Source: Lingula anatina
Taxonomy: Eukaryota > Animalia > Brachiopoda
Assembly (NCBI GenBank): GCA_051362555.1
Contig: CM120649.1
Location: 15,004,001-15,068,000 of the forward strand
DNA length: 64,000 nucleotides
Reading direction: 5' to 3'
Shown one piece after another: positions 7,999-64,000 of this stretch; the first letter of the stretch is position 1; each line of letters begins with the position of its first letter. The notes beneath the pieces were generated by a model that was not told the origin of the DNA, ran no database searches, and saw only the letters and a list, made by a program, of their open reading frames with translations. A program made the translations under genes and the position numbers.

Positions 7999-8035
7999 CT
8001 ACATCACATCTCATCACGTACAGACCCTCTGCAGA

Positions 8036-13233: not shown

Positions 13234-13265
<32 letters not shown>

Positions 13266-14863: not shown

Positions 14864-14903
<40 letters not shown>

Positions 14904-15399
14904 GGAGAAGAAGAAGAACGTATTCTTTAAACAATCTCACATAAAACGTGTATCTCTAAATGTATACATAGGACCTACTCGAATCCAAAGAGTGACCTTT
15001 CCCAATGAACACATCTGTGTATCGACGTTATTTCTCTGACGTGAAAATATTCCGTATGGGAGTACGGTGCCTACCAAGGAGACTCTCAAACAAATGAAAA
15101 ATGATACTTCCTCTTGCTGACCTGATTTTGGTGTGAGTTTTGTGGGTTCTTTTTTTCCTCAAGAAAGGGATGTTGAAGAAAAAATAATCAAAAGGGATTC
15201 AGGCAAAGGAAAAGGGCGACAACTAATAGTTTTCCGCCTAATTTTCGTATGACAAACCTTCTCGGGAACTTATTATTGCACAGAATAGTATTTTTAAAAG
15301 TTACAACTTTACGGGCAACATAAATTCCGTTGCTTTGCATCATAATCCATTTTATCTGAAGTACAACCAATTGAACAATTCACAAAAGAAAATTGAACG

Positions 15400-21300: not shown

Positions 21301-21880
21301 AAATGGTCCCAGAATATAATTTAACATTAATTGCGCATTTCTGTGAGGTTCCAGCTTCAGGTACCAGAATCTAATCTACAGGCTCTATCTATCCATGGTG
21401 AGTGGAAGTTTGAGATAGTTCCTGATCATCCCGTTTTTCTTTTAGGTCCACCTACCGGCAACTAAAGACACTATCTACTGGTGCAATGGGTTTAAACCAC
21501 CCGCCACAAATGGCGTGCATCACGTGATCAAGGTAGGCAATATAATCTTTTTTACAGTGTTTTATAATGAACTACACGAGTCTTGAATGTGTATTTTACT
21601 TCATGTAACTTAGTTATGTGCTATTAAGTACCTGCAAGATGCACTCCTGGCCACAAAGAGTATTGCAACTGATAAGCAAACCACAATATCTACAACCTAC
21701 AGGATCCATGCAACTTACAACATAGGAAAGCGACGTTCTCACAATTTGAGCACTACTGTAAACCGCAAAACATTTCCTTTTGATCTGCTAAAAGATTGTT
21801 TAAAAGTACCACACGAAAGAAATGATATGTGGCAAATAGCAAAATATTTTATTTTTGGTTTTGGACAGGGTATTCATATC

Positions 21881-21923
<43 letters not shown>

Positions 21924-38935: not shown

Positions 38936-41900
38936 CATGCGTGCGTGTGTGTAACAGGTCCCTAGAACCAGCAGGACACAGTCTTACCCCTTGTCTCCAT
39001 CTTCCACCCCTTCATCATCATCTGACAGCTGAGGTAGGGCAGCCGACGCGTCCCCCTCCCCCTCGGCTGGGGCCTCATTCTCCCCCTCATCATCAGATAT
39101 AACTGGAACAAGAAAATATAGATATATTTCATGTGTTGAATTGTCAGTTCACTTTGTTCAAATAAATATTAATATCCAAAATTATATTTCAAACATATTA
39201 TCCTAGAATTCTGTCCCGTAACTGGATCCTCTTTGCACAAATAATTTCACATAAGTTAATGTGTAAAACTTCATTTCTGCTCATCAGCAAATGGCTTGTT
39301 CAATAACTACATTATATTCAAGATAAAATGTTGATGTTTTCAGAGCTAAATGGTTGTGTAACAAAATTACCTGCTACTTTCTTTTTCTTTGGAGTTTCCA
39401 TGTCTGCATCTTGAAAGCCCTGAAGGAAGAAGTAAATACACAGTTTAATGAAAAACACCCATACATGATAAATATTGGCAGTTTACAACTACATAAAAGA
39501 TAAAAGCATTTGGCACACAAAAGCTATTTTACATACTGTTTTCTGAAAGCAGGAGGCAAAACTGTATCATATAACAAATCATACCTCAAATTCTTCTTCT
39601 TCATCACTAGAGCCAAAGATGTCTGCTATAAGTTCACCAACGTTGGACCTGGAAAAAAGAACAAAATGGATCTACATCAAATACTCATTTCTGAATCAAT
39701 GAAAAATCATAACAACAAGAACAATAGCACTTTACATGATAATAGACGATAAAAAAAAATAATAAGAATTATTAGAACCTTAATTTAACATAAAATGTTC
39801 TTACTCTTTATCACTATCCTCGTCATCGCTGCCCTTTTCAGAACCCTCTTTGTCCAGTGAAACATTTTGACGCTCCTCTTTTGTGTCTAAAGATAAAAGT
39901 AAAATATTCACAAGTTTTCTGACAGAGATTTCTACTTCAAATCTATGAAAGTTTACAAATATTATTTTAATTTTATTTTACTATATTTCTCTTGAAAGTG
40001 CAAAGAAAAAAGTGACAGGAATACAATTCATAGTTGCTCCTTAAACACCTAATGTCTTCTTTGTTATCAACTCACCCAGCTATTTAATAAACACTGAGGT
40101 TATAACTTTACAATGCAATTTAAGATAAAGTGAACCATTTGAATAATCTTTAGTAATATTTTCACCTTTCTCGTCCTCATTTCCAGCTTCAGATTTCTTC
40201 CCTTCGTCACCACTTCTAAACAAATTAAATGAAAACCAAAATATTAAACACAAAATATATTACATACCAATTTTCTCAACTTACTGATGTATAAACTTTA
40301 CAGTAATTATAGTCATTTTTAATAAGAGATGCCAGTGCTAGTAAGTAATGATGCATCTTAAGTCAGTAAAATGTCCAACAGCTTTACTGAGGTATAACTA
40401 ATAACGCAAACTGAAATTCCACAGGTACAATTTCCAGAGAGAGATAAAAAAGTTACAACATCATAACCTTCAAATTGAGCTTACCCTGCCTTTGCTTCCT
40501 CATCTTCACCCCTCCTCCTCTCAGCCTCACTGCCATCCCTGCTCTCTTCATCTTTGTTGCTAGGAGAACGAGGCCCCTCAGCATCACTGCTGGGTGAAGC
40601 TGGGCCCTCTTCAGGTTTCTCCACAGGAGATGCAGGCCCTTCTGCAGCATCTCCTTGGAAACCAGGTGGCGACTGGGGACCTTGGTTACTGCTGCTAGGA
40701 GATGTGGGTCCATCTTTGTTAACTGAATCTTGGCTGACTTCATCCTGAAAACTCGGAGATTGTGGACCCTGGTTACTGTTGCTAGGTGAGATGGGCCCCC
40801 GACTACCATCATCAGGGGACTGTGGCCCCTGGTCACTGTTGCTAGGTGACTGAGGGCCTTGGTTACTGTTGCTAGGAGACTGAGGCCCTTGGTAACTGTC
40901 AACAGAAGACCAATTTCCTTGGGCACTTGGTGATTGTGGTCCCTCACTCACCACCGCAGCATGCGTAGAAAATGGCGGCTGATTTGGAACATATTCTGAC
41001 CTGTTTTCTTCCATCATTGTCTCGCTCCAGGCAACACTATCAAGTTGACTATCTTGAGCACTGTCATACTCAGAGTTTTTCTGGTTATCACCAGCTGTTT
41101 CTCCACTTTCAAAGTCACTCATCCTGCTACTCTGTTGTGAGTCCTGGTTCTGCACCTCCATATTGTCCGTTCTATCCCCTCCATCATCTGATGGACTGTG
41201 TGCTGACCCCTGGCTAGGACTGGCTGGACCTTGGCTATCCTCCCCGCCTGGACTCTGGTGGTCACTACCAGCTGGACAGGCTGGACCTTGGTCATCATCA
41301 CTTTGGTCACTCATGGGACTTGGGGACCTGACCTCTTCCCCTTCCTGACTTCCTTCAGGACTCGGAGATCTTATGTCAGCACCTGCCTGCTCCTCCGCCA
41401 TTGGAGAATCAATTTCTCCATCACCGTCTTCCTCTTCTTCTGGTTGTGGATATTGGTTTGATTCATCCATGTTTGCATTGTCGTTGTCAGAATCTTGGAT
41501 TTCTCCGTCACCATCAGAACCCTGATCTTCCATCGACTCTTCATCTGTTAACAAAGAAATATAGAACAGAAATTTAAGTCCATTTATTTCATTAATGTTC
41601 TGAAAACATAAAAACTGACAGATTCTTTTTTATTTCTTTTTTTTTGCCACTAACCAGATTCAGGTGAGGCTACCTTCAGCTAATTGGAAAGCACAAACTG
41701 CACTCTGTGGATTCACCAAGGTAAAAATGCACTAAATAAAATTTAAAAAAACCAGGACACTTGTTACTTGCATGATTACTCTTCAACTTGAACATCAGTC
41801 TTACCCCTCTGCTGTACATCCCCATCATCAGCTTCCTCTCCAGACAGCTGGCCCTCACTGTCCTCCTCCTGATCTTCACCAGTGTAGGATTCACGGCGGT

Positions 41901-44744: not shown

Positions 44745-47700
44745 TCTCATCCAAGTCAGTCATTAAAACAGGGAGCAAGGAGATGGTTAAAAAAATAAGT
44801 CTTTAATGCTCCCCACCCACCCGGTTCAGAGGCTTATGTGTTTCTGAGTGTTATAGCACCCGACTTAAAATCCGCCTCCTTTGTACCTCTGCCCAGCACC
44901 TCTTTCACCAACTGAAGGGATATGCAAGGGTCTCTGCAGGTACAGGTGCAAGGCTAACACATGCGCACATGTTGATATAACGGATACAAGAAGGTCCGAT
45001 TGGGGTAGAGTTGGGATGGGTGCCATCAAGAAAGCATATTGAGTGGGACACGCACAGGCGCATTTCCCCAGTTGGAGCACGCCAAATTACAGTACCGTGG
45101 TGAAAATTGCAGCATATTCAATGTACACCACAATAATTATTAGAAATGATTTATCTAGTCTCTATAAATGTACCTGCTATATTTTCCCTTTCCATCCTGT
45201 AACATCTCAAAGAATATATCATTTTATATTTCAGTGTGCCACAGACCGTTGCATGGTTTTCCCGGTCGATCCTACAATCCATCAGAAGGTGCTGGATCTC
45301 GTGCGACAGGAGACCAAACTCATCAATTTCTTCTTCAAGTTTGTCGGCTATTCGTCGCAAGATAATCCTTTGCTGCTGAACATGTCAGAGTTTTACCGCG
45401 GAAACACGTGGTCGCGCGCGCACTCCCGCCATGGCCGAACACTCCTGACGCTTGCATTTAATTACGACATACTATCATTGACTATGTTGAGCATTGGGCG
45501 AGTGGATATGACTGTCAATTTAGACGATTCACCACGTGGTTGTCTCGCGGGATTTAGTGAGATGTGCAAGGTGCAGAAAATTCGACAACTTTTGTTTTAT
45601 GACCTCATTGTTAATGGGACTTCTTCATCGGTAACCAAAGATGATTATATTTGTAATCCGGTTATTAAACGAGTAAAGGATCACGGTCATTTTGTGTATA
45701 AATGCTGCACGTGGTTTAACGGGGAAATGCTTTGCACGGATCAACTAAAAGACGGCTGGGTGACGGTGTTGGACTACATGATAATCACATGCATGTACCT
45801 GGTCATTTTGTTTGCGCCACTTGCAGCCCCTCGATGGGTTTACACCTTTGCCAAGGACCAAATGACATACGTTTTAAAGTTAGGAGACAATGGCGGACCA
45901 AAGAAGTTACAGTTCACTGTTCACGTGTCAACGAAAGATCCGGACAAAACTTACTTGACCGCGCGCCACGTGCTCGAAATCCGTGACTTAAGAACTTTTC
46001 CAAAACTCACTAGGAAGATTCGAGAATGGGAAAGAGATAAAAAGCTTGACCAAGACATCCGTGTTGAAACATCAGAGCTTCATCTTGCCGTTGACTTGGA
46101 CAAGACTTTAACAATGCACAACGTGCCTATAGGATTCCCGCACTTTATCAGCCGCATGTTTTGTCAATGCAAATTAGCAAAAGAACCCGGATGTTCCAGT
46201 TTTTGCCGCTCCAGTGTGTGGGGTTGTCTACCGAATACGGACGAAATATATTGTACTTGGCTTCATGTTGGGAAATGTTTGGGTATAATGATTCTCGTAG
46301 CATGCGCGTTGCCACTGCCATTTATTATACGACTTGGACTTTACTTTTTATACGAACAGGACGAGGTATTGCTGCGAAAGGCCGCGCTGCATTCGTTGCA
46401 CCTACATGAAAATTACGAAGAAAATTTGCTTCAATATCTCACGCCCTTCCACCCAGCGCTTGTCTGTGCGTACCTGTTTTACTTTTTATGTTGCACCGTA
46501 TATTGTCTTGCCTACAATAATGTTAGAGGGACGGGAATGGTGAGACGAATTGTGAAGACGTCATTCGAAGACTTAATGGGAATAAAGTACGGACAAGTGT
46601 TACAGAGACTGGTTGCCGTAGTGTTATTGCCGTTAGAGAGGTTCGGCGTTTGTGGCTTCCTCTTTGGTCTCCTATACTGGCCTGTTGTCGTTCCTGTGTG
46701 TCTCATCATGGTTCCGTTTTATTGCCTCCCAACACTGTACCTCTCCATAAGGATGCTGTTTAATTCACAGATGTCGCTGCAACGCTTCAGATCAAAACCG
46801 GACCAAGACAAGGGGCAAAGGTTCGAGAGGCCGTCAGGAAGTCAGTTAAAAAGGAATCTGGTTCATGGAATGAAACGCGTTCATAATCTCCTTGGCAACA
46901 TGAACATAACTCACAACGATTCTGAGCATCATCACAAGTATCGCCCCCACGTGAGTGATATGTCCTGTTACGGGAGAACGCGGAAGATTGTTCTTCACCT
47001 TGCAGCTGCCTTCGTATGCATATGCTTTCTTTATTCAGTTCTCATTATGTTAGCAGAGAGTGCCTATTTAGGTACGGAGGTATTTGCCCTGACTTTGATG
47101 GGGGCTATCATAAACGCTGGCACCACATTGAAATTCCTGTCCCTGGTGGCCCTGATTGTTCTTTACGCCTACGACGCATTAAATGACGTATACAAAACGT
47201 ACCTAGAGCTAAACCAAAGCATCGTGACGACAGTGTATAATTTGGCAAATGAGGTTGCCTATGGCGGTATTGAGCAAGGTAGTGGGGAGACTAATAAACC
47301 AAGAACGGCATTTCAGCTGAACCTTGCTGAGCACAAGGTCGGCAAGAGGGAAAGTTACCAACCTGATGGACTCTCCACCAAGGGATCGAGGAGAAACCAT
47401 TACCATGTGAACAATCTCTGTCTGTTGATGGATTCCAACGACACTGCTCGTATACCGATAGACCTGTTTTACCGGATGTGCGAAATCGACATCTCCCACT
47501 CCCCTGGGCCGATAGAGAGGAGGGTGTGGGGTGCGTTGGGGTACCTCTTTTTGATCACCTTGTTCATTGGGTTTGTGTTCATAGTCGTGGGGACGTTTGG
47601 GAACCTGTATAACATTTCAACTACCAACCAAACTCTGGCATCGCTGGCTGGGGGTGCACTGCCGTTCTTCCTGAGGAGCTTCTGCAAGCCGCCAAAGTTG

Positions 47701-48330
47701 GATGGAAGCTACAAAACTGCGATCAGCTTTAGGCGGCGATTTGACGAAACCATAGCCACCTACTCACAGTCGTGGCCCATTGCAGATTTAGATGTGACCG
47801 AAGTGAAGGAAACCGAAGACGGTTCATGCAGCGAATGGGCGCCTATTTGTTACGTCGACAGCGCGGTCGCTGTACAAGAAACGGGCGCTCCTGTACCAAT
47901 GAAGGAGCTGGTTGTCGAACAAAAACCAAGCAACTTGTTTGATAGGCTCACCGACGCTATACGGTCAGGTTTAGGGAGTAGAGGAAGCTTAGACAGTATC
48001 TCAAGCTCTGATGATGACGGCAAGTCGAATTCATTGCTTGCATTCAGTGGCGTGAGCTCCGTTGCTGACATCACTTCCGGTGAGAACGGTGTTATCTTTG
48101 ACTTCGCAGACGGGTCCGTAACCATGGTAGATTCACGGCCTGATATACTGATAAAAATTGATAAGCGAACTTTGGCCAAACTGAATGGAAATCACCCGGA
48201 TGTTAAACGGAAGTTACGTCATCACTATGATGAAATAGACCTAGGCAATTCAGACGACGTACGCACATTTAATAAAATATCAGACAACAATGACTGCGTT
48301 TCCAATGAATCGGAAGGCACCGATTTGTAA
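44166..48330 (+). CDS. Uncharacterised multi-pass membrane protein, ~1086 aa, 2 coding exons
   Basis: Exon 44166-44330 encodes a signal peptide (MNAVKLTVAIFACCVSLFDYVGSEA) with donor CAG|GTAAGC. It splices in phase 0 to the 3.1-kb exon 45235-48330. The protein has a Cys-containing ectodomain, ~9-11 hydrophobic segments and a Ser/Asp-rich C-terminal tail. No family was recognised. Confidence 0.85.
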
Positions 48331-49790
48331 ATGGTTGAATTGTATATAATATTAATAGTAGTGGTTGTATAGGCCTAGGTTGATTTTATAACAATCCTAT
48401 CTTACCGTTTTAAAATGTTCACAAGTGATATGTGGGAAAGAACCCATCGCGCCAACCAAGTGTTTTTTTTTCCTTAATCACACAGTAGTAGAAAACATTT
48501 AAACTCTAAATAAATGGAGAGACTCCACCTGAGTGCTGCATAATTTAGCTTGTGCCTTGAACTGAATATAGAAATGGAAGAAAAGCCAAAAATTAAGAGA
48601 GATAATATACAAACTAATTTACCTGACAGAAAGAAATAATGAGATTAAATTCATAATATACTGTTTCAACCATCAACGAGTGTTATAATTGTCTATATGT
48701 AATATTTTTATTTATGTGAAATCATTTTATTGAAAATAAACTTTGAAGGGTGTCATTTTTCCACCAAATATTAATCATTTTCCAAATTTGTGTCCCACTT
48801 CTCTAAACGTATATACTTTACAATAACTATGAATACCTGATTGTTTATTTATGAACTGATCAGAAAAAAAAAAACGTTTTGTCACAGTTTCTTTTATTTT
48901 CTACGTCAGCTCAAATTACAGCATTTTTATCATAGTCATATCAACTTAGTGAAAAATTAACGTTTGTGCCACATGGAAAATTGAAACACGTTTCGCTATC
49001 TTTCAGTTTGGACACGTGAAAATTTCCATTAATATAAATGTGCACCTTTTAAAGTAAGCGTTTAGCCAACATTATAAAAGTAATACATACTGATTAATAA
49101 ATAAAGTAAGAAAAAGACAAAAAAAAAGCTTCATAAGCTGATTGTACATATACTTTCAAAGCACACTGTGGCCTTAATGTTAAAAATGCGTAATAAAAAT
49201 AAAATTGCATTGCACTTCTATGTACATCTTTACACTTTGATTTTTCAAAATATGCTTTAAAAGTCTCTGATATGTGGAAAATAAAACCAAACGCGATTTT
49301 CAGCAAAGTGAATATGGAAAACAAACAACTCCAAAAACGAGCGACACTGAATTATGCACTCAAAAAAACATGCAAAGTAGGCCTATAGACATGCAAATAG
49401 CCTATGTAAGTTGCACATAGCAGTTCACAAATACATATTTCATGGCATTAAAAATATCTTTTGTACAACACAGCTACTTTTCTACAATACAATACAATAG
49501 TCAACATGATCAATCTTTCGGCATCAAGTTTAATGCTATTGAATGTAACGACACACTCATTGGCAACAGAAAAATAAAAAAGTACTAAAAAGGCATAATA
49601 ATTATACACAGTCTGTATAAAAGGTTAGATACGTAGATACTGAGTTCACTTAACAAAAACAGATCACCACTGTCTTGATGATATAAAACATCGGTGGGAG
49701 GTCCTTTTATACTTGTCCCTTAGTGCTAAAAACCAGTAGTTTTCTGAAGCTGGTTAAGTACGAGTGTTTTGGCTTGTATCCTATCACAAT

Positions 49791-49948
49791 CAGGGGCGGA
49801 TTGAGTCCGTCTTCTTGAAGACGGCCAGATTTTCAAGTCTATATTGACAGATATCTAATTTTTCTGACTGAAGACGGTCATAAATGGACGACTGATCAAA
49901 ACAGGTAATTTGGAAGACCGTCAGAAAATATCTCTGGATCCGCCACTG
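49791..49948. mobile_element. MITE (CAGGGGCGGAT TIR family), copy 2
   Basis: Flanked by an ACAAT duplication. Absent at the paralogous site (~61954-61958). Confidence 0.88.
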
Positions 49949-50057
49949 ACAATAAAACTTTAAAAGAAATAAACATGTACTTAAGTCAACTTTACAGTGG
50001 GGGTCGCAATGAAACCGGTCGTCTGTTGAGGACGGCTATGAATCTATTTCAGGTGTC

Positions 50058-51069
50058 CTACATAAAAAGTGGCGCGATTACTGCTACAAATACCAAGGAC
50101 AGTGTGGTCATGGAAGCTTGCAGAAGTGTTGATCCCGAGGAGGCGCGAGCCAGCCTATCGTATTTCCCTCTCAATTCCTGTAAGGAGAAACGAAAGGAAA
50201 ATGATCAAGACTAAGATGAGTGCCTCTCGCAAGCGAAGTAAAATGTACTGTTTGTATTTTGTACTTAATGTGAAAGTTATCATTTCTCTCTCTCTCTCTC
50301 TCTCCCACACACACACACGCACACACACACTGAGTAACATTTACCATAACTACCCCAAAAATATCTATACAAATACAATGTTAACCACGCATTTCCATTT
50401 CCGTAAATCATGATAATATCAATTTGTCGATTAAAAATCAACAGATGTGACTTACTCTGATGCCACTCTTAAGGGACGCAACATCAGCTTTACTTTGGCT
50501 TAAATCTCCCCGCAGAGCACTTATCTTTCTGTACATTTCCTGTCGCAAGTCCTGTAATATTATCATTTTATCATATTTTATTTTGTATAGATTAAATTGG
50601 CAGACCTCTGTATAAATATCAATAAATAATATCAATTACGATATTAATAAAGCAATTGTATTAATATAAACGTCAGGAAATTGATTTTCTGTATATTCAC
50701 GTTATGTACAACGAATGAAGCTAAGCCATAAAAGTTATTTAAAGGGGGGGGGCTTTTGAAATAACCTTTTTGGATATTTTTGTAAAAAAATGAGAGTATC
50801 AAATGCAGTTGTTACACATAAAACATTGACGTCACAATAGTCGATTGAAATACAGGAGCCTGCTGTCAACGTGTCCAGCGTAATAACGACTATATTTGTA
50901 AACTCAAGTGCCCAAGAAAGGTTTACCGTTTTACTCCGGTCCAGCCTATCGTATTTTCCACTCAATTCCTGTAAGGAGAAACGAAAGGAAAATGATCAAG
51001 ACTTAGAAGAGTGCCTCTCGAAAACGAAGTAAAATGTACTGTTTGTATTTTGTACTTTAATGTGAAAGT

Positions 51070-51126
<57 letters not shown>

Positions 51127-51845
51127 CGACTAACATTTACCATAACTACCCCAAAAATATATATACAAAAACAATGTTAACCACGCATTTCCATTTTTAA
51201 TTATGATGTTATCAATTTGTCGATTAGAAATCAAAATGTGACCTACTCTGATGTCACTCCTAATGGACGCAACATCAGCTCCACTTCGACTTAAATCTCC
51301 CCGCAGAGCACTTATCTTGCTGGACATGTCCTGCTGCAAGTCCTGAAATATTATCATTTTATCATATTTCATTTGGTATAGCTTAATTTGGCAAACCTCG
51401 GTATTAATATCAATTAATATACGATATTTATATAGCAATCGTATTAATATTTGATTGATTTTCTGTATATTCACGTTATGTACAACGAATGAAGCTAAGC
51501 CATAAAAGTTATTTAAAGGGGGGCCTTTTGAAATAACCTTTTGGGATATTTTTTGAAAAAAATGGGAGTATCAAATGCAGTTGTTCCACATAAAACGTTG
51601 ACGTCACAATAGTCGATTGAAATACAGGCTGTCAACGTGTACAGCGTAATATAATTACAATATTTGTAAACTCAAGTGCCCCAGAAAGGTTTACCGTTTT
51701 ACTCCGGTCCAACCTATCGTATTTTCCTCTCAATTCCTGTAAATGAAACGAAAAGGAAAATGATCATTCAAGACTTAGATGAGTGCCTCTCGAAAGCGAA
51801 GTAAAATGTACTGTTTGTATTTTGTACTTTAGTGTGAAAGTTATC

Positions 51846-51900
<55 letters not shown>

Positions 51901-54900
51901 ACTAACATTTACCATAACTACCCCAAAAATATATATACAAAAACAATGTTAACCACGCATTCCTATTTCCGTGAATCGTGATGATATCAATTTGTCGATT
52001 AGAAATCAAAATGTGACCTACTCTGATGTCACTCCTAATGGACGCAACATCAGCTCCACTTTGGCTTAAATCTCCCCGCAGAGCACTTATCTTGCTGGAC
52101 ATGTCCTGCTGCAAGTCCTGTAATATTATCATTTTATCATATTTCATTTTGTATAGATTAAATTGGCAAACCTCGGTATTAATATCAATTAATATACGAT
52201 ATTTATATACAGTAGCAATCGTATTACTAATTGATTGATTTTCTGTATATTCACAACGAATGAAGCTAAGCCATAAAAGTTATTTAAAGGGGGCCTTTTG
52301 AAATAACCTTTTTGGATATTTTTTTGTAAAAAATGAGAGTTTCAAATGCAGTTGCTACACATAAAACGTTGACGTCACAAAAGTCGATTGACATACAGGC
52401 TGTCAACGTGTACAGCGTAATATAATTACAATATTTGTAAACTCAAGTGCCCCATAAAGGTTTACCTTTTTACTCTGGTTCAGCTTTGCTTCAAGAAGAT
52501 CCAGTCGATCCCTACTGCGTCCACTCGCGTCATTTAAACTGTGTCTGATACTGGAAAAATTCTGTTAAAATAGAAAAATAATTAAATGCCGAAGCTTAGG
52601 ATTAAACATGCTCTGAACACTGTCGCTCAAGTCCAACAACAGGACAAATAAGTTTATTATTTTTATAGTTACATTTTTACTTATCTTTGAAAACACTCTC
52701 ACTGTTAGTAGCCCCTTTACTTTTACAAACATAACATTTGTTTATTTTAAAGCCTGCGCCTAGAAAAAAAAAAAAAAGTATTATTATTCTCATTTGCTTA
52801 ACTTACTTGCTGCATTAACAGCTCCAGCCTGTCCATCTTCCTAAAAGCCTCGGCTGTGCTGTTATCGTTGTTATTTGCCTTCCCACCCAATCTTCCCACT
52901 TCTGCTACCAGTAACTGGAATACGTAATTACATATATCTTTTATAAATTGAAGCTGTGCAAAATGTTATGACGATTATTTCTTTAACATACATGTACATG
53001 TATATGAGGGACAAAAATTATTGCAATGCTGATCTGCATTTTTGCATCAATTCAACAACCTTTTCTTGCAGTTATCAAATACTATGTATCAATGCGTAAA
53101 ATATTGAAAGAGATTAAAAAAAAAAAAAAACAGCTGCTGACTTCTTGTAGCAATTATAAACAAGGCGCGACCATTCAAGATGGCGTCGATTCAATGAACA
53201 TGAGAAGTTGCAACACTCACCTCGTGATCTTGCATTAGACTCTGAAATGAAAAGAAAAATAATTTGTTATCAATTTATTTAATGCAATTTCCAAATATTA
53301 CTTAAAGTTTAATAAAAAAATCTTTTGGAGACATCATTTGATTTAATACATGTATATTCTGTACTCATCTAACGCATTGCCCGGAAATCATGATATTATA
53401 CATGCCAAACGTTTGGATGACGTGATGTGGTGTTTAATACCACTGGAAGGAAAATATTCAACAAAAGTCGCTTTTATTTAAAACAAACTATGACATAAAT
53501 ACCGTTGCCCGTTTACACATGACAGAGATCTGATCAACCATAGCCATATATGACGTCAAAGAAAAAAAAACTGACTATTCAAATGTATCAGATTGCTAAT
53601 ATGCAAAACTACAAAATGTGATTTTCTCTTGCCTTTAGATCATTAAAACTGTCATTCAGCAGTCGCTTGTATTCCTCCAATTGCGCCTTTGTAAACCCGT
53701 GCGATTGTGACAGATCCTAAAATACGAACAGATTGTGGGTTCTTTCAATTCAAATTTAATAATATCTCACATAAAATTTATTCTTAATTTTTAGTATTTA
53801 ATGAGCATGCCAATTTTACTTTTCCATGCGCGCCTCAAATTTTACACAGTGTAACATCTGAGATTACTGTGACGTCACAATGTCAATCATCGAAGGCTTG
53901 TTTATTTCAAAACGAAACCAGACATCTTGTATTTTGTGGTATTACGCTCTTTTCACAAATACAATCAACAAGAAAAATATTTACTTTTTATGATATACAG
54001 GCTCCAACTTAAATTCAGGATGAAATGTAAATGTAGCAGCTTGTTAATGCTCAGAACAATTAAATTAATGTGTTTCTCTTACTGTTAGATGGTTTAAAAA
54101 ATCTTCCATCTGCCGGGCATGTTCTACCAACTGTGCCTTTGTTTTCTGGTGCGCTTGTGTCAGATCCTAAATTGAGAACAGAATATCATTATGTGCTGCA
54201 GGTTCTCTCAATTCAATTTCTAAATTATCTTTTACAGTTTCGAGCATATTTCTGTGTGAAGTAATCATTAACGGGTGCCAATTTGTTTTTCAAACCTGTA
54301 CTGCTAAAATATCACACCAAGCATGCGACAGCTGAGATTACTGTGACATCACTTTGACAACCATAGAAGGAATGCACATTTTAAAACCACAGCATGACAT
54401 TTTGAAAAAACACATCTTGTATTTTGTGTAACGCTTTTTCACATGTGCGATCAACCGCATAATAAGATTATTAACGTTTTATCATACACTACCCTGAGTG
54501 CCAGAACCACTGTGAAGCTAGATTGTTAACTATTGAAACGTTTTCACGCGATAGCTTCACAGTGGTATTGCTGATATGGGTTACATATGAAATCAAGATC
54601 GAGCTGGCAATACCGAAATCTAGAACCTAGGGTATCATACACAGGCTTCAACTTCAAATCGAGGAGTGAAGGAATTGTTGATTCTATCAACATTTAAAAA
54701 AAAGTCCGAAAGACGTTTGGCTCGTAACAATACTCACTTTAATAGAAGCATTATAATGACCCATCAGTATGCGGCGTTCTTGTGCAATGCTCAGATCCTG
54801 GAAAATTAATATGAATATATAGAGTCTATATAAGAGAGTTATCCGTCTTAAGTAACCGTTCAGGACACGTCAGCCGTTTCTATAACTCACATCTACCGAC

Positions 54901-55617
54901 ACGTAATAGGTCGACTTTGGCAATGACAATGCACAGCAGTTAAATCATATGAATAGTAAAACAGAAGGAATTTTTTTTTTTTTTTATTCAGAATAAAATT
55001 TGGATTATTGAATAAGTTTTCTTTGTGTATCTTATACATGAACGTTAGAAGCAGATAAAAACAGAGATTACAGAGGACCTTTTTAAATAAAACCTATACA
55101 AATGCGCAAATAATACTCAAATATCCATATTTTTAGTTAAATTCAGAAGACTTTAATCTCTATTACACAAAAATTCTAAATTCTATTACAAAAAATTCTA
55201 AATTCTATTACACAAAAATTCTAAATCCAACCATAATCTACGTACTTTTGTGCCGACCACAGCGTACTTCTGAATAGCCGACGTCACAGTACTGTTGAAA
55301 AGTCGAGATTTCAGCTCCGCTACTTCCTTGTATAATTTCGCTTCCTGTGACCTCAGTGGACACACAGAGATGAAATCGTAGAGGTACAACCCCGCGAAAA
55401 CGAGCAAAACCACTCCGAACACTTTAGCGCAAGTCTTTATGGCCTTTCCTTTCTTCGAGCTGGCCCAAGGGCGACGACGTAGACGTTTGGAAGCGCGGGT
55501 TTCGTGAGGCGTTAGGGAGTCGAAACTGGTTCGCGATTTGTCCTCATAGTCGGAAGCGCAGGTGCTCCCGTTTTCCTCCCACACAGGTGAATCGGGGAAA
55601 ACGTCCTCTCCCGACAT
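50058..55617 (-). CDS. Tetherin/BST2-topology protein (type II TM - coiled coil - GPI signal), paralogue 1, 438 aa, 13 phase-0 exons
   Basis: Exons 55617-55246, 54797-54738, 54166-54083, 53716-53633 (GC donor), 53241-53221, 52914-52807, 52561-52466, 52117-52022, 51736-51695, 51342-51247, 50968-50927, 50551-50456 and 50177-50058. A ~63-aa tail with a basic patch, TM VFGVVLLVFAGLYLYDFISV, a heptad-rich ectodomain with N-x-S/T sites, and C-terminus ARASSGSTLLQASMTTLSLVFVAVIAPLFM*. The gene structure is seen directly; the tetherin-like label is topological inference. Confidence 0.85.
50151..52485. repeat. Three ~770-790-bp tandem units, each carrying a 96-nt exon
   Basis: Units ~50151-50940, ~50941-51710 and ~51711-52485 share exons (DLQQDMSSKISALRGDLS..), introns and the (CT)n(CA)n tract. 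Confidence 0.92.
54490..54634. mobile_element. 145-bp non-autonomous DNA element with 8-bp TSD
   Basis: Termini TACCCTGAGTGCCAGA / TCTAGAACCTAGGGTA, TSD TCATACAC at 54482-54489 and 54635-54642, and an internal hairpin ACCACTGTGAAGCTA...TAGCTTCACAGTGGT. Absent from the homologous intron segment at ~53990-54000. Confidence 0.8.
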
Positions 55618-56570
55618 TGTCGTCCGATTGCTTTTACTTTTTGATGGTTGGTTAGCTTGAATTATTCAACTGAAAAACAAAAATAAACTATCATCATTAT
55701 CATTTTTATCAATATTATTTTAATATCTTTTATTATTAATGATTACACTGTTCTACTGTCATCAACCAGTTTAAAAATAAAATGTTTAATAGATGAATAA
55801 AAATAGGTATATTATTAACAAATGGACAGGCAGATGGCAAGATATTAAATGAATAGATATAAAATTAAATGGACACATGAATAGACAGCTTTTATTCCCA
55901 GCTGTAACATGTACTCCAATTCGCTTTTTTAATGTTCAGGCTAAATGTTGAAGTCTTTTTAAAATAAACTTTTTAAAAATTCCATATGTTTGTTTTTATT
56001 TGTAATAGGAACCCTGTCTTTTCTGAATGTCTTAACTATTTTTCATAATTGGACTTGGGCCAGTGAAGTTTGGTTCGTGTCTGTAAGTTGAAAAGGATTT
56101 GCCACAGACTCAAGTTGTATATCGCCCCCAATGATAAGGCTGGGGAATATTCTGAGTCGGAATATTTTTCTTCAGAAGTCTGACTGCAGATAGCCTTATC
56201 TTTTACATTTGATAACATTTGCAGCAAAAATACCCGATACTAGTACATATACAGTGTAACAGGCCTGTAGTCAGCAATTTCAAAAGAGGGTTTCTTTTTA
56301 TGAATAACTGTACCTGAATAAAATTTTACCCTAGGGGGACTTTTTCTACGGGCCTGTGTAAAAAAAAAAAAAAGAAAAAAATTAGAATCCCCGTTCGTTC
56401 AAAAAGCTCCAGACCTACGATTACATATTACATAGGATGCCTGGGTTTGCCCGTGTGACCCCCCCCCCCCCCCCCCCCCCAGCTCTGCCTAGCCTTTGTA
56501 GTTGCTTCAGTTTTAAATCAACAATTTTAGTTTTAAATACATCTGACGAACTCACCATGTAGGCCTACGT

Positions 56571-56597
56571 GGGGAAATTAACCAGGTTTCGGTTTCC
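56571..56597 (-). promoter_or_regulatory. ISRE/IRF-E-like element (GGAAACCGAAACC) next to a putative non-coding first exon
   Basis: Plus-strand GGTTTCGGTTTCC at 56585-56597 fits the GAAANNGAAA consensus. A donor CATG|GTGAGT lies at 56556/56555 and a kB-like GGGGAAATT at 56571-56579. Confidence 0.55.
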
Positions 56598-57480
56598 TTA
56601 GCACACCTGATATGTTTCGTATTGGCTAATATCTACGCAGGCATGCTTTGCTGGCCTACCAAGCCATTTATAAATTAGGTCGACTTCAATACAGAAACAT
56701 CCTTTGTGTAAAATCATATTACGAGGCGGCTTGTATTTATTGTTATTATAATAAACTCAGCATTCTTGACCGGCTTTTCAGTCCAAATTGCTGCATTGAA
56801 ATTAATAATAGTGTTATATGTAATAAGTCGTTCGTTTAGTCCACAGGTTTAGAGCATGCAGTGTTAATAGACCCTTATCAGCCTAACCTACAAAGACAAA
56901 CTCTTCATCCAAAATGTCTGAACGTTTTGTAGGCCTAATATTTCTGTCAGTTTAAAACGAAAACTCGGTGAAAAACGGTGGCTTCACATCAGTCACATAG
57001 TTCTCATGTCTAACCACAGCAAAGATACTGTATCTAAATCAATGTATCTAGGGCCTAGACGAGTTAAAAACTAACGCTTCACTCTCCCCCCCCCCTCCCC
57101 CCTCCCTCTAAACATACCTTAACTCGCATCTGCCAACATAGTAAGTTACGCTTCACCCTCGAAGACTCATTACTGCACTGGACCCCTATTTTAATTCTTA
57201 ACTCGTACTAGTAATCAACTTCAATTCAGAAACATATTTTTGATACTGATGTTCAGTATTCGAACTCGTGACACAGAGGCACCGTTTTTTTAAGATCGAC
57301 ATAGACTGATACTGCGCGCCTTCATGCAGAACCAACCGACGGAGAGGAATGGCGCTTGGATTTAAAACAGGAATGAAAAGAAACAGTAGCCGCTCAACAA
57401 ATAAACAAACCAGCTTTACAACGATTTCCTACATTCTAGATCATTCTACACAGGAATCAAACATGTTCAACCTGACTAAC

Positions 57481-57560
57481 CTTCTTCGTCTCCCCTCATA
57501 GAATAGCAGCAAAAGTCTGCATGTCCCTTAAATATCAGTAATCTAGCGAAACTCCGCGAT
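57481..57560 (-). other. Putative upstream non-coding first exon of tetherin-like paralogue 1
   Basis: Strong donor GAAG|GTTAGT at 57481/57480 in a CpG-richer patch. The matching acceptor is TTTTTCAG at 55670-55677, upstream of the ATG. The 5' limit is approximate. Confidence 0.35.
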
Positions 57561-58129
57561 CGAAACCATGACTAGTAAATATTTGCCACTGTCTATTTTA
57601 AACCGTGCCCCAGGGTCAAGTTACAGCGATCACTGCGCATGCCCCGGTCATTTCAATAATAGAAACTTCTCTCTGTTGTTATTTAGATGAACGTTTTTAG
57701 TGTTAATTTCTGAATAGGAGTGAAGTGACTGATTTGTAGACCTAGAGCTGATCTAGTTGACGCCGTCTATTTCTAATCTTGGTTAAGAAAGTAAAGCAAA
57801 ACAGCAATCAAATACACTAAGAGAATCGATGTGGTTCAGGTTCCCATTTTACAGGGGAATCCCCCGCCATCTCCCCCCCCCCCCCCCCCCCCCATTAAAA
57901 GATGGTACTAGTAATCATTTTTAAGATGCTTCTTTTATTTTGAAGTAATCATATGTGCTAATTAGTTTTTTTTCCTTTGTTTCTAATCTTTTATCTTAGG
58001 GAGAAATTATAACGTTTATTGAGGACCACAATGCGCGCAAAATAGGCCCTATACCTAGGCCTATAATGGGGTATTGCACGGGAAGGTTTGACCATGTTTT
58101 ATTTGCTGGGCAACGCAAACTGAATAACT

Positions 58130-58298
58130 CAGGGGCGGATTGAGGCTGTCTTCTGGGCCTTCTGGAAGACGGTCAGATTTTCAAGCTTACATTGATGGGT
58201 ATCCATTTTTTTTCTGCCAGAAGACGGTCAAAAATAGAGGATGGATCAACAAAGATAATTTGGAAGACTGTCAGAAAATATCTCTGGATCCGCCCCTG
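58130..58298. mobile_element. MITE (CAGGGGCGGAT TIR family), copy 3
   Basis: Reverse-complement homologue of 6042-6209 with the same TIRs. The TSD is not clean. Confidence 0.85.
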
Positions 58299-58315
58299 AA
58301 TTAACGAACAGATAT

Positions 58316-58359
<44 letters not shown>

Positions 58360-58864
58360 AAAAAATAAATAAATAAATAAATAAATAAATGTAAAAATAA
58401 AAAACGCGGTAACGTGTAGGCCTACAGTAGTAGTTTTCCAAATAAACATAAGTAATCAACGCAATTGGTAGTGAAGTAGCCTACAATTTGCAGAGATACC
58501 AAATCATTTAGAAATTATGATACATGCATGCTAAACATCAGGGCAGCGTAGGCATATATATATATATAATAAAAAGAAAAAAAAGAACAGCAGCTATTTT
58601 GCCCCAACCGGTTTCATTCTTTCTTCAGGGTGTTTTGTTTATTTGTTACTAGGTGATGTCATAAAGGCTAAAATGTGACGTCTGTAACAATGGGTGTTTA
58701 ATTGTTGCTTTTACCAATGCTATTATCTATTCAATGTAGGTTTATACTTTTTAATGAATTCATTGAATAGATATACATATGAGGCACTGCTGTCATAAAC
58801 AACACAATCAGCATACCTAACGCAGTGGCTTCCCACTGCTGTTGTAAACAACACAATCAGCACA

Positions 58865-58895
<31 letters not shown>

Positions 58896-59816
58896 GGCTA
58901 TGAGAACGCTCGACCACGATTACCTTAATCGTCTATGAACTGTACAAACAAAGTGCACCACAAACAGTTACACTGAATCTACCTTAAATTGCTGATAGGC
59001 CTACTGTTGGCTTCTTCGATGTTGTTTCGCTTTCTAAAACGGTACAGAGTTATTTGCTCTGAGCTTTCCTCTTCACTAACTTCACCCTGGTAAATACACA
59101 ACTGCCAGCAGCTCTTGTAAGCTACGTAACTGTGACCTAACAGGCAATAGACCAATTAAATGCAAGCACGTTCCGAAACCAACATTTGTAGAATCTACGC
59201 ATGCTCAAAGTTCTGGAATTTTTAAAGGGTATTCCCCTTTGCAGTAAATATAAGTACATTAAGTAATGCTGACGTGTCACTGTGTATTTAAAGTTATTTC
59301 AACTTATTGAACATTTATTAATATCTACACCCAAAGTTCAAGTCAAACATATGTGCCGAGCAAAGCGAAAGGGAGATAAGAAATAACAAAACGTACACTG
59401 GTAGCATCAATATCCATATTCAAATCACTGATAATAATTAAACCAACCCTGAAATGAAGCGTGAGCGTCTCTAATACATAGGCCTACGTGAGTCTTTAAA
59501 CCCCGTTTTATGCTAAATGTTGTAATTTTGTTTTACCGTGACTCCATGAATCAATCCAACTAAAGTTGTGGCCCTGATGGGTGATATTCATTTATGGTCA
59601 TTCCAGATCATTCAATTTCCTGTGTTCTGCAAGCTTTTGTTTTTCATTATTTTTTCCCCTGATTGACATCTCCCAATCTCTCTCTCTCTTTCTCTCTCTC
59701 TCCCCCCCCCCCCCCCCCCCAGTGTTGAGACACTTCATCCATGGGTCTAATTCAGATGATAACATTTGATGTAGTATTGTCAAAATTTCAAACCTAAACA
59801 ACTGGTTTTCTTCCAG

Positions 59817-60361
59817 TGGGAACAATCAAATATTCGAAACCAGCCACATGGAAACCAATGCAAGACTTTGTCCACATCGCCTTTATAGAAATAAGTGCTG
59901 CGGCGAAGGAAAAGTATGTAGGGGATTTCATGACACATGGTGAACCATATGATTGTAGCTTGTTTATGGGTGATTTGGGGGATCTAGAAGGTGAAAGAGT
60001 CCAAAAAGATGGCGCCGCTACTGGATATACTGAGGGGATTGTTGTTGGCAACCTTGACATTAACGATTTACTTAAAGGCTATTCTAATCTTCTGTTGGTG
60101 AAATCGGTGGGAGACAAGCCTTTCTCTCGGGAAGGTGACAGTGGTAGCGTTGTCGTTATGAAGTCTGACTGTGCCCCGAACTCCTTGTTGGCAGTTTCGA
60201 TGATTCACAGCGGACTGAATTTAAGGGAAGAGCTAATGTCAAGCGAATCTTCTTATTCACTTACATTTGGCCTCCGTAGAGCTATTACTGATGCTGAGTG
60301 CACACTTGGAGAAAAATTTACGCTTCAACAAAGGTTTAAGGTTGCATCCTACTTCATCTAA
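59817..60361 (+). pseudogene. Orphan terminal exon of a trypsin-like (PA clan) serine protease domain
   Basis: Acceptor TTTTCTTCCAG|TG. The open frame contains VQKDGAATGYTEGIV, FSREGDSGSVV and AVSMIHSG. No upstream coding exons were recognised, and the expected catalytic Asp position reads VHIAFIEI. Confidence 0.6.
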
Positions 60362-60999
60362 CTTCACAACATGAATTGTTCGTTTAGCCAAGGAATTCCC
60401 TGCTACAATTCCTCGGTTTGCCGGTAGCTTATCTATTTTGGCAACAGAAACATTAAACCTGTTAAGATTGCTTGCATTTATTGTTAAACTAGCAGGTAGG
60501 GACGGTAGGTGGCCCCTTTTCCCATGGCAAATATTCCTGCAAAAAGCATATCCCACCCACCCCCGCCCAAAAAAATAGTAAGATTTTTTTGCTTGTAGGC
60601 TACAATTTTTAGATTAGCTACTCCAAGAAGAAATATTTAATATTTGATTGATGTTTTAATTCAAAATGTTTATAGCAGTTTACATAGGTACAGGTACAGT
60701 GTTCTGTTATCACGTTAACACCACTTGTTGGTGTCTGGGTGAGGATATAAACATTTCATACAAACGATAGAAATATGATCTGATAAGCAGGATAATGTTT
60801 GGATATGTAAATATACTCTATAGAATTGGGTCAAAAAATTTTCAACGTTTTTGCACTACAATAATATTTTTTTCTTTGTTATCAGGCTGTCAGGGACCAT
60901 AATGAAAACATTGTAATTAACACTCTTCAGTTTTTCATACATGATATAGTATTAATTCAATCAGTGGAAGTCTTTTTCTGAAAAAAAATCACACATTAT

Positions 61000-62289
61000 T
61001 TTCTGCGTCAGCTCAAATTACATCATTTTTTTCATAGCCATATCAACTTTACAAAAAAATCATATCGTTTGTGCCACATGGAAAGTCGAAACACGTTTTG
61101 TTAGCTTTCAGTTTGGAAACGTGAAAATTTCCATTAAAATAAATGTGCACCTTTTAAAGTGAGCATTTAGTCTACATTATAAAAGTAATAAATAACGATT
61201 GATAAATGCAGTAAGAAAAATACAAAAAAGCTTCATAAGCTGATTGTACATATACTTCCAAAGCACATTGTGGCTTTAATGTTAAAAATGCGTGATAAAA
61301 ATAAAATTGCATTGCACTTCTATGTACATCTTTACACTTTGATTTTTCAAAATTGCATTGCACTTCTATGTTCATCTTTACACTTTGATTTTTCAAAATA
61401 AACCTTTAAAGTCTCTGATATGTGAATAATACATGTAAAACCAAACGCGATTTTCAGCAAAGTGAATATGGAAAACAAATAGCTCCAAAAACGAGCGACA
61501 CTAAATTATGCGCTCACAAGACCTTCAAAGATGGCCACATGTAAGTTGCACATAGCAGTTCACAAATACATATTTAAGGGCATTAAAAATATCTTCTTTT
61601 GTACAACACAGCTACTTTTCTACAATACAATACAATACGATACAATACAATACAATACAATACAATACAATAGTCAACATGATCGATCTTTCGGCATCAA
61701 GTTTAATGCTATTGAATGTAATGACACACTCATTGGCAACAGAAAAATAAAAAAGTACTAAAAAGGCATAATAATTATACACAGTCTGTATAAAAGGTTA
61801 GATACGTAGATACTGAGTTCACTTAACAAAAACAGATCACCACTGATGATATAAAACATCGGTGGGAGGTCCTTTTATACTTGTCCCTTAGTGCTAAAAA
61901 CCAGTAGTTTTCGGAAGCTGGTTAAGTACGAGTGTTTTGGCTTGTATCCTATCACAATCAAGCTTTAAAAGAAATAAACATGCACTTAAGTCAACTTTAC
62001 AGTGGGGGCTCGCAATGAAACCGGTCTTCTGTTGACGGCTATGACACTAAATCCCGTTTACAAGTGTCCTACATGAAAAGTGGCGCGAATACTGATACAA
62101 ATAGTAAGGGCAGTGTGGTCATGGAAGCTTGCAGAAGTGTTGATCCCGAGAGGGCGAGAGCCAGCCTATCGTATTTTCCTCTCAATTCCTGTAAGGAAAA
62201 ACGAAAGGAAAATGATCAAGACTTAGATGAGTGCCTCTCAAAAGCGAAGCAAAATGTACTGTCGGTATTTTGTAATTTAATGTGAAAGT

Positions 62290-62360
<71 letters not shown>

Positions 62361-64000
62361 TAATTTTTGCCATAATTACCCCAAAAATATCTATACAAAA
62401 ACAATGTTAACCACGCATTTTCATTTCCGTTAATCACGATGAAATCAATTTGTCGATTAGAAATCAACAGATGTGACTTACTCTGATGCCACTTTTAATG
62501 GACGCAACATCAGCTTTACTGTGGCTTAAATCTCCCTGCAGAGCACTTATCTTGCTGGACATGTCCTGCTGCAAGTCCTGTAATATTATCATTTTATCAT
62601 ATTTCATTCCGTATAGATTAAATTGGTAGATTTCTGTATTAATATCAATTAATACATGACATTAATATAGCAGCTGTATTAATATAATCGTCAGGAAATT
62701 GATTTTCTGTATATGCAGATTGCACGTTACAACGAATGAAGCTAAGGCCATACAAGTAATTTAAAGGGGGCCTTTTGAAATAACCTTTTTGGATATTCTT
62801 TGTAAATAATTAGAGTATCAGATGCAGTTGTTGCAGATAAAACGTTGACGTCATCTACTGAAGTACTGGTTGACAACGTACATGTATACAGCTTAATAAT
62901 GACAATATTTGCATAAATAAGTGCTCCAGAAAGGTTTACCGTTTTACTCTGGTCCAGCTTTGCTTCAAGAAGATCCAGTCGATGCCTACTGCGTTCAATC
63001 GCGTCATTTAAACTGTGTCTGATACTGGAAAAATTCTGTTGAAATAGAACAAAAATTAAATGCCGGAGCTTAGGATTAAACATGCTCTGTACACTGTCGC
63101 TTACGTCCAACAACAGGACAAATAAGTTTATTGTTTTTTTTATATTCTTGATTTATCTTTGAAAACACTCTCACTGTTAGTAGTACCTATACATACTTGA
63201 CATTTGCTTATTTTAAAGCCTCTGGCTAGAAAAAAAAAAGTATTATTATTCTCATTTGCTTAACTTACTTGCTGCATTAACAGCTCCAGCCTAGCCATCT
63301 TCCTAAAAGCCTCAGCTGTGCGGTTGTCGTTGTTATTTACCTTCCCACCGAGTCTTTCTACTTCTGCTACCAGTAACTGGAATACGAAATGTCACATCTT
63401 TTACAAATTGAAGCCTTGCAAAATGCTACGACGATTATTTCTTTAACATACATGTATATGAGGGACAAAAATTACTGTAATACTCATTCGAATTTTTGCA
63501 TTAATTCAACATCAGCAATATCTTTTTGCAGTTATCAAATGATATGTATTAATGCGTAAAATATTGAAAGAGATCTTTAAAAAAACAGCTGCTGACTTCT
63601 TAAGCTTGTAGCAATTATAAACAAAGCGCGACAATTCAAGATGGCATCGATTCAATGAACACGAGAGGTTGCAACACTCACCTCGTGATCTTGCATTAGA
63701 CTCTGAAATGAAAAGAAAAAATAATTTGTTACCAGTTTATGTTATGCAATTACCAAATATTACTTAAAGTTTAGAGAAAAAGTTCCTTTGGAGACATCAT
63801 TTTATTTAATATATTCTGTACCCGTCTTACGCGTTTCCCGGAAACCATGATATTACACATGCCAAACGTGAGGATTAGGTGACGTGGTGTTTAATACCAC
63901 AGGCAGGAAAATATTCAACAAAAAATCGCGTTTATTTAAAACAGAAAATGACATAAATACCGTTGCCCATTCACACATGACAGTGATCCGATCAATGCAA
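61000..64000. repeat. Segmental duplication, copy 2 (continues past window end)
   Basis: Collinear with 48895-53545, but lacks the MITE and two of the three tandem units. Has a private 46-bp tandem duplication at 61303-61394. Confidence 0.92.
62069..63702 (-). CDS. Tetherin-topology protein paralogue 2 (3' five exons; 5' part lies beyond the window)
   Basis: Exons 63702-63682 (SLMQDHE), 63376-63269, 63035-62940, 62577-62482 and 62188-62069 (ELRGKYDRLALALSGSTLLQASMTTLPLLFVSVFAPLFM*). Splice sites are intact and there are no stops. Confidence 0.85.

Follow-up and report, generated by a model that had tools for sequence, protein, structure and literature searches.

We analyzed a 64,000-nucleotide (nt) stretch of Lingula anatina DNA (assembly GCA_051362555.1, contig CM120649.1, positions 15,004,001 to 15,068,000 of the forward strand), hereafter the window, in which two tandem paralogous genes lie on the minus strand between 50058 and 63702. 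Both have so far been found only in Lingula, and both are predicted to encode a membrane-bound coiled-coil rod. Paralogue 1 carries a 0.78-kilobase (kb) block three times, where paralogue 2 carries it once, and the extra exons are spliced into mRNA, adding 92 amino acids (aa) to the predicted rod. We consider it probable, while allowing real doubt, that the two proteins are heptad rods with an anchor at each end that would act as membrane tethers or spacers of fixed length, a function that we draw from their layout.

The coding sequence of paralogue 1 runs from an ATG at 55617 to the end of the stop codon at 50058, and its 13 coding exons (Table 1) sum to 1317 nt and 438 aa. Every exon length is divisible by three, and therefore all 12 coding introns are in phase 0. 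The acceptors are all AG and the donors GT, with the exception of a GC donor after exon 4. The repeat block is ordered as exon 7 (96 nt), exon 8 (96), exon 9 (42), exon 10 (96), exon 11 (42), exon 12 (96) and the last exon. By self-BLAST, its tandem unit is present three times head to tail (50150-50945, 50941-51711 and 51709-52484; 86.6-90.4% alike), with a unit length of 0.77-0.79 kb, and once in paralogue 2 (62161-62958). Paralogue 2, whose 21-nt exon has its upstream edge at 63702, lacks 42-nt exons and has a single 96-nt exon of the DLQQ type. The two proteins differ by 2 x (32+14) = 92 aa, corresponding to 13.7 nm at 0.1485 nm per residue, given a continuous helix. An earlier note on this DNA had proposed tandem paralogues shaped by exon-block amplification, with three 96-nt and two 42-nt exons in paralogue 1 against one 96-nt exon in paralogue 2, phase 0 introns throughout, and a difference of 92 aa, or about 14 nm at 0.15 nm per residue; the exon map, the exon lengths, the self-BLAST comparison and the computed length bear these proposals out.

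The two genes are also found as separate loci in another assembly. Exon 1 matches two Lingula anatina proteins whose genes lie together on one 138,554-base contig, which agrees with the tandem arrangement. The first, LOC106157207 (XP_013388239.1, here P0001, and XP_013388240.1, which are one and the same 438-aa protein), is 93% identical over exon 1 (P0001 residues 1-124) and has the identical exon order with three 32-aa and two 14-aa pieces, derived from an independent assembly; P0001 differs from the window's protein at 24/438 residues. The second, LOC106157202 (P0002), is 244 aa long, is 81% identical over exon 1, and its reading frame runs past exon 6 and stops in the following intron. In exon 6, paralogue 2 is closest to P0002 (89.7% vs 84.6%), and a full-length paralogue 2, assembled from P0002 and the window's three last exons, would have 346 aa.

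We used public reads of the same species label to determine whether the extra exons enter mRNA, aligning three RNA runs (X13, X16 and X19) and one DNA run (X3) to 48500-54950, a stretch that contains 11 introns, with exon 1 and paralogue 2 outside it; joints were listed at ≥3 reads. Run X13 is poly(A) RNA whose reads have one orientation only, fitting minus-strand RNA in a stranded library, and its depth is zero in all 6 purely intronic bins. Within the repeat block, X13 reads join exons 13 and 12 (6 reads), 12 and 11 (10), 11 and 10 (6), and 10 and 9 (3), and upstream they join exons 7 and 6 (3). The remaining joints were counted in X13/X16/X19 as 2/1/11 reads for exons 6 and 5, 2/3/14 for exons 5 and 4 (53241/53633), 2/3/0 for exons 4 and 3, and 1/0/11 for exons 3 and 2 (54166/54738). 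Altogether, RNA joins 9/11 predicted introns in the aligned stretch and 4/6 repeat-block junctions, and RNA depth covers exon 8. The intron 53242-53632 is confirmed as GC-AG (donor gcaaga), its joints having the ends CT..GC in three RNA runs. The aligner placed the joint between exons 10 and 9 at 2 nt from the prediction, probably because the reads carry AAG for ACG as the last codon of exon 9, as the P0001 allele does. Reads from X19 are 95-99% alike throughout, skip the element at 49793-49948 and leave exons 7 to 12 uncovered; they come from another allele or paralogue and represent a third sequence variant. The extra exons of the repeat block are therefore spliced into mRNA, with joints at the predicted bases, and the repeated exons are probably included constitutively.

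The genomic mechanism is resolved to the base, and we regard the evolutionary mechanism as solid. With the breakpoint marked by a slash, the sequences are ...GATAGGCTGG/CTCGC in the last exon, ...GCAAAGCTGG/ACCAGAGTAAAACG in the paralogue-2 form of exon 7, and ...GATAGGCTGG/ACCGGAGTAAAACG in the 42-nt exon. The first 28 nt of the 42-nt exon are thus the start of the last exon, and its last 14 nt, together with the donor, correspond to the exon 7 end in the form that paralogue 2 has (...AAGCTGG/ACCAGAGTAAAACG gtaaac). Both parent exons have GCTGG at the switch, which occurs at an identical position within the codon in each and so keeps the reading frame. The 42-nt exon is an in-frame chimera created by breakpoints in two exons, joined at the GCTGG microhomology. 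A single illegitimate recombination at this microhomology would have produced the first copy, and hence two units, and a later unequal crossover between the units may have produced the third.

The order of these events can be estimated from the units, labeled U1 to U3 in Table 1. In a four-way alignment that includes the paralogue 2 unit, 14 informative sites join U2 with U3, vs 3 and 2 for the other groupings, and the private differences number 54 in the paralogue 2 unit, 27 in U1, 18 in U3 and 14 in U2, suggesting that U2 and U3 are the youngest pair. The introns of U1 to U3 are 89-96% alike, vs 81-91% when compared with the paralogue 2 unit; because U1 to U3 are closer to one another than to that unit, either the amplification would postdate the gene duplication or homogenisation has acted on the array since then. 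An earlier round of this duplication process is seen at exons 3 and 4, which are both 84 nt long, both begin DL.Q.H, and lie in a decayed tandem block (54455-54127 vs 53969-53677, 77-83% identity); DL also opens exon 2 and the 96-nt exons. Two further observations suggest gene conversion between copies. In exon 6 (52807-52914 vs 63269-63376), P0001 residues 208-243 carry the paralogue 2 letters E, V and R, not G, A and S, and the endings SKK and SKT have been exchanged between repeat copies when the window's protein is compared with P0001.

We now consider the architecture of the encoded protein. Hydropathy analysis yields two peaks only, at residues 66-84 (2.05) and 420-438 (2.04). A K/R-rich run precedes the first peak and, according to the positive-inside rule, the K/R-rich flank of a span lies on the cytoplasmic side; the N-terminus is therefore predicted to be cytoplasmic. 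The rod between the peaks is about 330 aa long, lacks proline from 88 to 434, and is dominated by Leu, Ser, Arg, Asp, Ala and Lys. Its heptad score (z = 9.1) was reached by 0/500 shuffles, and the a/d positions of one 46-aa unit (M I L L S V I I L Y L) continue over the boundary between the 96-nt and 42-nt exons. The register moves by 3 per unit, and so each unit amounts to six heptads plus a 4-residue stutter. AlphaFold2 models the monomer with helices at 56-108, 128-177, 182-220, 227-337 and 342-437. The ectodomain holds 6 N-x-S/T sequons vs 1.77 expected (16/5000 shuffles reach 6, P = 0.003), and several of them survive letter changes between copies (NST/NRT, NAS/NDS); this excess and retention point to a glycosylated rod, extracellular or luminal, and we take a glycosylated extracellular coiled coil to be the probable form. 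A GPI (glycosylphosphatidylinositol) signal comprises small residues, a spacer and a C-terminal hydrophobic end. In this protein, SSGS is followed by some 9 spacer residues and then by 14 hydrophobic residues that run to the very C-terminus. Both paralogues and P0001 retain this tail and the SGSTLLQASMTTL stretch before it, and we take the tail as a candidate GPI signal or second anchor. The amplified block adjoins this tail, at the far end from the N-terminal span, which qualifies the earlier note's description of the stalk as membrane-proximal.

Relatives outside these two loci were sought by sequence and by structure. A word-indexed search of 5.8 billion proteins, with exon 1 queried against longer proteins and P0001 against proteins of 240-767 aa, returned only LOC106157207 and LOC106157202. 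With phmmer, exon 1 matched P0002 and one further protein (P0003, E 8e-4) among 1.84 billion representatives; we rejected P0003 as a relative, as it is a low-complexity repeat protein. The same program found nothing below E 0.01 among PDB sequences, the ESM Atlas gave no usable feature match and structure matches at template modeling (TM) scores ≤0.32, and Foldseek with the low-confidence model returned 0 PDB matches at E up to 0.001 and only generic long-helix proteins. Matches to two families were considered, and we do not assign the protein to either. P0001 scores 48.8 bits against DUF1664 (PF07889), summed over 3 stretches, vs a Pfam cut-off of 34.6, but a single-unit fragment of 121 aa reaches 27.5 bits, under that cut-off, and the pass of P0001 therefore stems from its repeated block; according to PMC13074810, DUF1664 is a plant family of unknown function. 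The hepatic lectin N-terminal domain (Lectin_N, PF03954) matched at 16.1, 17.9 and 15.1 bits (E values 0.01, 0.0029 and 0.021) vs a cut-off of 28.3, with no C-type lectin domain after it. Literature searches on the accessions LOC106157207, LOC106157202 and their XP numbers gave no paper that names them, and a search on Lingula anatina coiled-coil tandem duplication found nothing related. By these searches, the gene is an annotated and uncharacterised orphan.

The predicted layout, with its short cytoplasmic tail, one span, glycosylated extracellular coiled coil and GPI-signal-like C-terminal tail, resembles that of tetherin (BST-2). The Lingula protein differs from tetherin in having neither sequence similarity nor conserved ectodomain cysteines, and in a rod of about 330 aa that is about three times the length of tetherin's. 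Lingula is an invertebrate and is not known to have an interferon system. No tetherin chain occurs among 22 PDB matches (phmmer, E up to 1), and no BST2 family occurs in Pfam at E up to 10 among all 23 matches of P0002 and the best 25 of 59 matches of P0001; given these differences in sequence, cysteines and rod length, we do not place the Lingula protein in the tetherin family. Tetherin activity derives from configuration and not from sequence, and an artificial protein of the same configuration and unrelated sequence reproduces it, according to PMC3715405. In vesper bats, PMC9599465 describes tandem tetherin paralogues whose coiled coils differ by about 60 aa, and in a fruit bat, a 7-aa splice variant. 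A tetherin-like mode of working is the most specific function that the anatomy suggests, and we give it a small chance at most. Its strongest form, in which the gene is an independently evolved Lingula analogue of tetherin spanning about 35 vs about 49 nm if fully extended and keeping vesicles or enveloped virions on the cell surface, is decidedly improbable. A literature search on tetherin, coiled coil and GPI found no invertebrate analogue among the titles and abstract beginnings of the matches listed.

Two other comparisons are informative. PLVAP is comparable in size, at about 440 aa, and is a type II membrane glycoprotein whose ectodomain forms a long coiled coil; it differs in lacking a C-terminal hydrophobic tail, and no sequence match to it was found by our searches. 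Exon-block amplification is familiar in repeat proteins, among them the triplicated region of nebulin, the NBPF/Olduvai exon doublets and the neck repeats of L-SIGN, where, as here, tandem duplication of symmetric exons steps the length of a rod or neck. The Lingula case differs from these in that the breakpoints fall within two exons and gave rise, at a microhomology of 5 nt, to a chimeric 42-nt exon that is new, and in that the gene has no known relatives.

We weighed the main finding against four rival explanations, beginning with those that concern the repeats. One is that the tandem units or the second gene are assembly or haplotype duplications. Contigs of the X3 DNA reads are indeed broken across the array, with zero-depth bins in U2 and U3. 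Still, RNA reads cross the joints of exon 12 with 11 and of exon 11 with 10, joints that require 42-nt exons to exist; the gene model from the independent assembly likewise has three units, and the second locus lies separately on the 138,554-base contig of that assembly; the units differ mutually at many sites; and the paralogues are 8% apart in exons and 9-19% in introns. With the triplication and the second gene present in two assemblies, an artefact is unlikely, and we consider this explanation hardly credible. It is a different question whether the repeats are real but without functional meaning, having accumulated by accident and been tolerated in a coiled coil under loose constraint. Across 146 shared codons the paralogues have 24 nonsynonymous and 10 synonymous differences, a ratio of nonsynonymous to synonymous rates (dN/dS) of 0.67-0.72. 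Such a ratio near 0.7 is compatible with neutral expansion, as are exons that are barely better conserved than introns (92-93% vs 81-91% identical) and a rod built repeatedly from DL-initial exons (exons 2, 3 and 4 and the 96-nt exons), as if such events were easy here. These values indicate relaxed constraint or weak purifying selection, which is common in coiled coils, and do not demonstrate positive selection. On the other side, the five added exons all preserve the frame, the splice sites and the heptad pattern, and they are also expressed and kept in a second allele that is 5.5% divergent, leading us to regard a purely neutral origin as unlikely. The opposite proposal, also made in the earlier note, is that rod length is actively tuned by copy-number polymorphism and exon skipping under selection by pathogens. 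The 92-aa difference between paralogues, the symmetric phase 0 exons that could be skipped in frame, and the exon 4 GC donor, of a class that is rare and often weak, are all consistent with such tuning; so are the 24/438 differences between the window's protein and P0001, with SKK and SKT swapped between repeat copies, and the third sequence variant in X19. The bat tetherins of PMC9599465 (60 aa between coiled coils; a 7-aa splice variant) point the same way. The data covered nevertheless give the parts of the proposal no support. The window and the independent gene model have the same 3+2 copy number, which speaks against polymorphism; no exon-skipping joint was listed at ≥3 reads, at junction depths of just 3-10 reads from which minor isoforms could escape, and the two NCBI accessions are one 438-aa protein, which speaks against alternative splicing; and dN/dS does not exceed 1, giving no sign of an arms race between host and pathogen. 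We find active tuning improbable.

The remaining rival concerns the second anchor. The C-terminal stretch may be no anchor, or may be spliced away, leaving a type II protein with a single anchor that resembles PLVAP, the neck of a hepatic lectin or a Golgi-resident stalk. The weak Lectin_N matches, all below the cut-off, lean this way, as does PLVAP, which according to PMC9599465 shares the tetherin layout except for the GPI signal. So does a candidate alternative last exon, with a short open frame (LCCTK.DIFNA.KYVFVNCYVQLT) about 0.6 kb past each paralogue's stop, of which a second copy lies at about 61560-61610 on the minus strand, downstream of paralogue 2, and the window's paralogue 1 version has one codon fewer. 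It is used in a predicted 451-aa isoform, P0004, whose differing, non-hydrophobic end lacks the tail. Against a single anchor, both paralogues and P0001 have retained the tail along with the SGSTLLQASMTTL stretch, and no RNA joint to the alternative end was listed among reads on 48500-54950. We therefore judge a single anchor to be a doubtful reading, if one to be taken seriously, and continue to favor the doubly anchored rod. Several observations, to which isoform P0004 belongs, weigh against that preference. The AlphaFold2 model has a low mean confidence (predicted local distance difference test, pLDDT, 56.8; 70-84 in the repeat block), and its four helix breaks, near 109-127, 178-181, 221-226 and 338-341, could fold the rod back, so that the lengths in nanometers are upper bounds. 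The omega-site reading of SSGS, spacer and 14-residue hydrophobic end is a putative one that follows general rules for GPI signals. The sole ectodomain cysteine, Cys86 in paralogue 1 and P0001, is Gly in P0002, and a tetherin-like disulfide dimer is thus not conserved. Among the reads, the joints of exon 9 with 8 and of exon 8 with 7 fall below the 3-read threshold, and the X3 DNA contigs, which are short, with uneven bins (0 to 148), and too fragmented to count units, have zero depth over 51092-51523 and 51740-51955.

The locus provides a clean, datable case of a protein rod growing in steps. Breakpoints in two exons fuse at a 5-nt microhomology into an exon that is new and in frame, and the unit so formed in turn seeds further unequal crossovers. 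A glycosylated coiled coil anchored at both ends is a rare layout and, in vertebrates, a doubly anchored coiled coil suffices to tether virions whatever its sequence. An invertebrate orphan that would combine this layout with two lengths is therefore a testable candidate for a convergent membrane tether. If the tail is no anchor, the locus instead encodes an ordinary stalk protein specific to this lineage, whose history of duplication is still tidy.

Table 1. Features of the two paralogues and their surroundings (window positions)
Feature	Positions	Strand	Basis or remark
Exon 1, coding part, 124 aa: predicted cytoplasmic tail, span 66-84, rod start	55246-55617	-	open reading frame, donor, hydropathy
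Exon 2, 60 nt	54738-54797	-	splice sites; RNA joint with exon 3
Exon 3, 84 nt, older tandem twin of exon 4	54083-54166	-	splice sites; RNA joint with exon 4
Exon 4, 84 nt, GC donor (gcaaga)	53633-53716	-	splice sites; RNA joint with exon 5
Exon 5, 21 nt, one heptad	53221-53241	-	splice sites; joints either side in three RNA runs
Exon 6, 108 nt	52807-52914	-	splice sites; RNA joints with exons 7 and 5
Exon 7, 96 nt; its final 14 nt gave rise to the 3′ part of the 42-nt exons	52466-52561	-	
Exon 8, 96 nt	52022-52117	-	in U3; RNA depth, no listed joint
Exon 9, 42 nt	51695-51736	-	U3/U2 boundary; RNA joint with exon 10
Exon 10, 96 nt	51247-51342	-	in U2; RNA joints with exons 9 and 11
Exon 11, 42 nt	50927-50968	-	U2/U1 boundary; RNA joints with exons 10 and 12
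Exon 12, 96 nt	50456-50551	-	in U1; RNA joints with exons 11 and 13
Exon 13 (last), 117 nt plus stop, 39 aa: rod end, SSGS patch, hydrophobic tail	50058-50177	-	
U3, 771 nt: exon 7 tail, intron, exon 8, intron, exon 9 head	51709-52479	-	
U2, 768 nt: exon 9 tail, exon 10, exon 11 head	50941-51708	-	
U1, 791 nt: exon 11 tail, exon 12, last-exon head	50150-50940	-	
Candidate alternative last exon	49390-49470	-	used in predicted isoform P0004; would replace hydrophobic tail
Paralogue 2, 3′ part	62069-63702	-	open frames, canonical splice sites; 5′ end outside window
Paralogue 2 exon, 21 nt	63682-63702	-	
Paralogue 2 exon, 108 nt	63269-63376	-	
Paralogue 2 exon, 96 nt	62940-63035	-	
Paralogue 2 exon, 96 nt	62482-62577	-	
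Paralogue 2 exon, last	62069-62188	-	
Paralogue 2 single unit	62161-62953	-	
Segmental duplicate 1	48894-53537	.	self-BLAST, 85-97% identity to 60996-63995
Short interspersed element, high-copy	49811-49949	.	self-BLAST; summed X3 contig depth about 45,000

The window is eukaryotic DNA, with a GC content of about 36%, dinucleotide microsatellites and short exons. The partner of segmental duplicate 1 runs past the window's end; a tblastn search with the proteins of LOC106157207 and LOC106157202 found no third gene copy in the window, and Rfam gave 0 family matches over 48000-64000. Paralogue 1 carries the high-copy interspersed element in its 3′ region, paralogue 2 lacks it, and a second copy lies at 58159-58299. 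Another short, very high-copy element lies at 54563-54634; such elements exceed 40,000 in summed X3 contig depth, and many loose-ended RNA reads fall on them. In the 3′ region of paralogue 2, a 46-nt sequence is duplicated in tandem (61303-61399, 2.1 copies, 98% match), and the homologous paralogue 1 site (49201-49283) has a single copy.

Several open frames accompany the two genes. Between the paralogues, a 187-codon frame (59798-60361, plus strand) matches Nal1_C (E 7.6e-5) and Peptidase_S64 weakly, in both cases below threshold. An unbroken 1095-codon frame at 45043-48330 (plus strand) is GC-richer (44-47%) and has several hydrophobic runs, with no Pfam match at E up to 0.1. At 40481-41629 on the minus strand, a GC-rich stretch (44%) holds an acidic 382-codon frame that is Ser/Pro-rich, with repeated GPQSPS motifs. 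Scattered frames on the plus strand at about 8000-25300 carry motifs that may be those of copper type II (dopamine beta-hydroxylase-like) monooxygenases, with a DOMON-like start.

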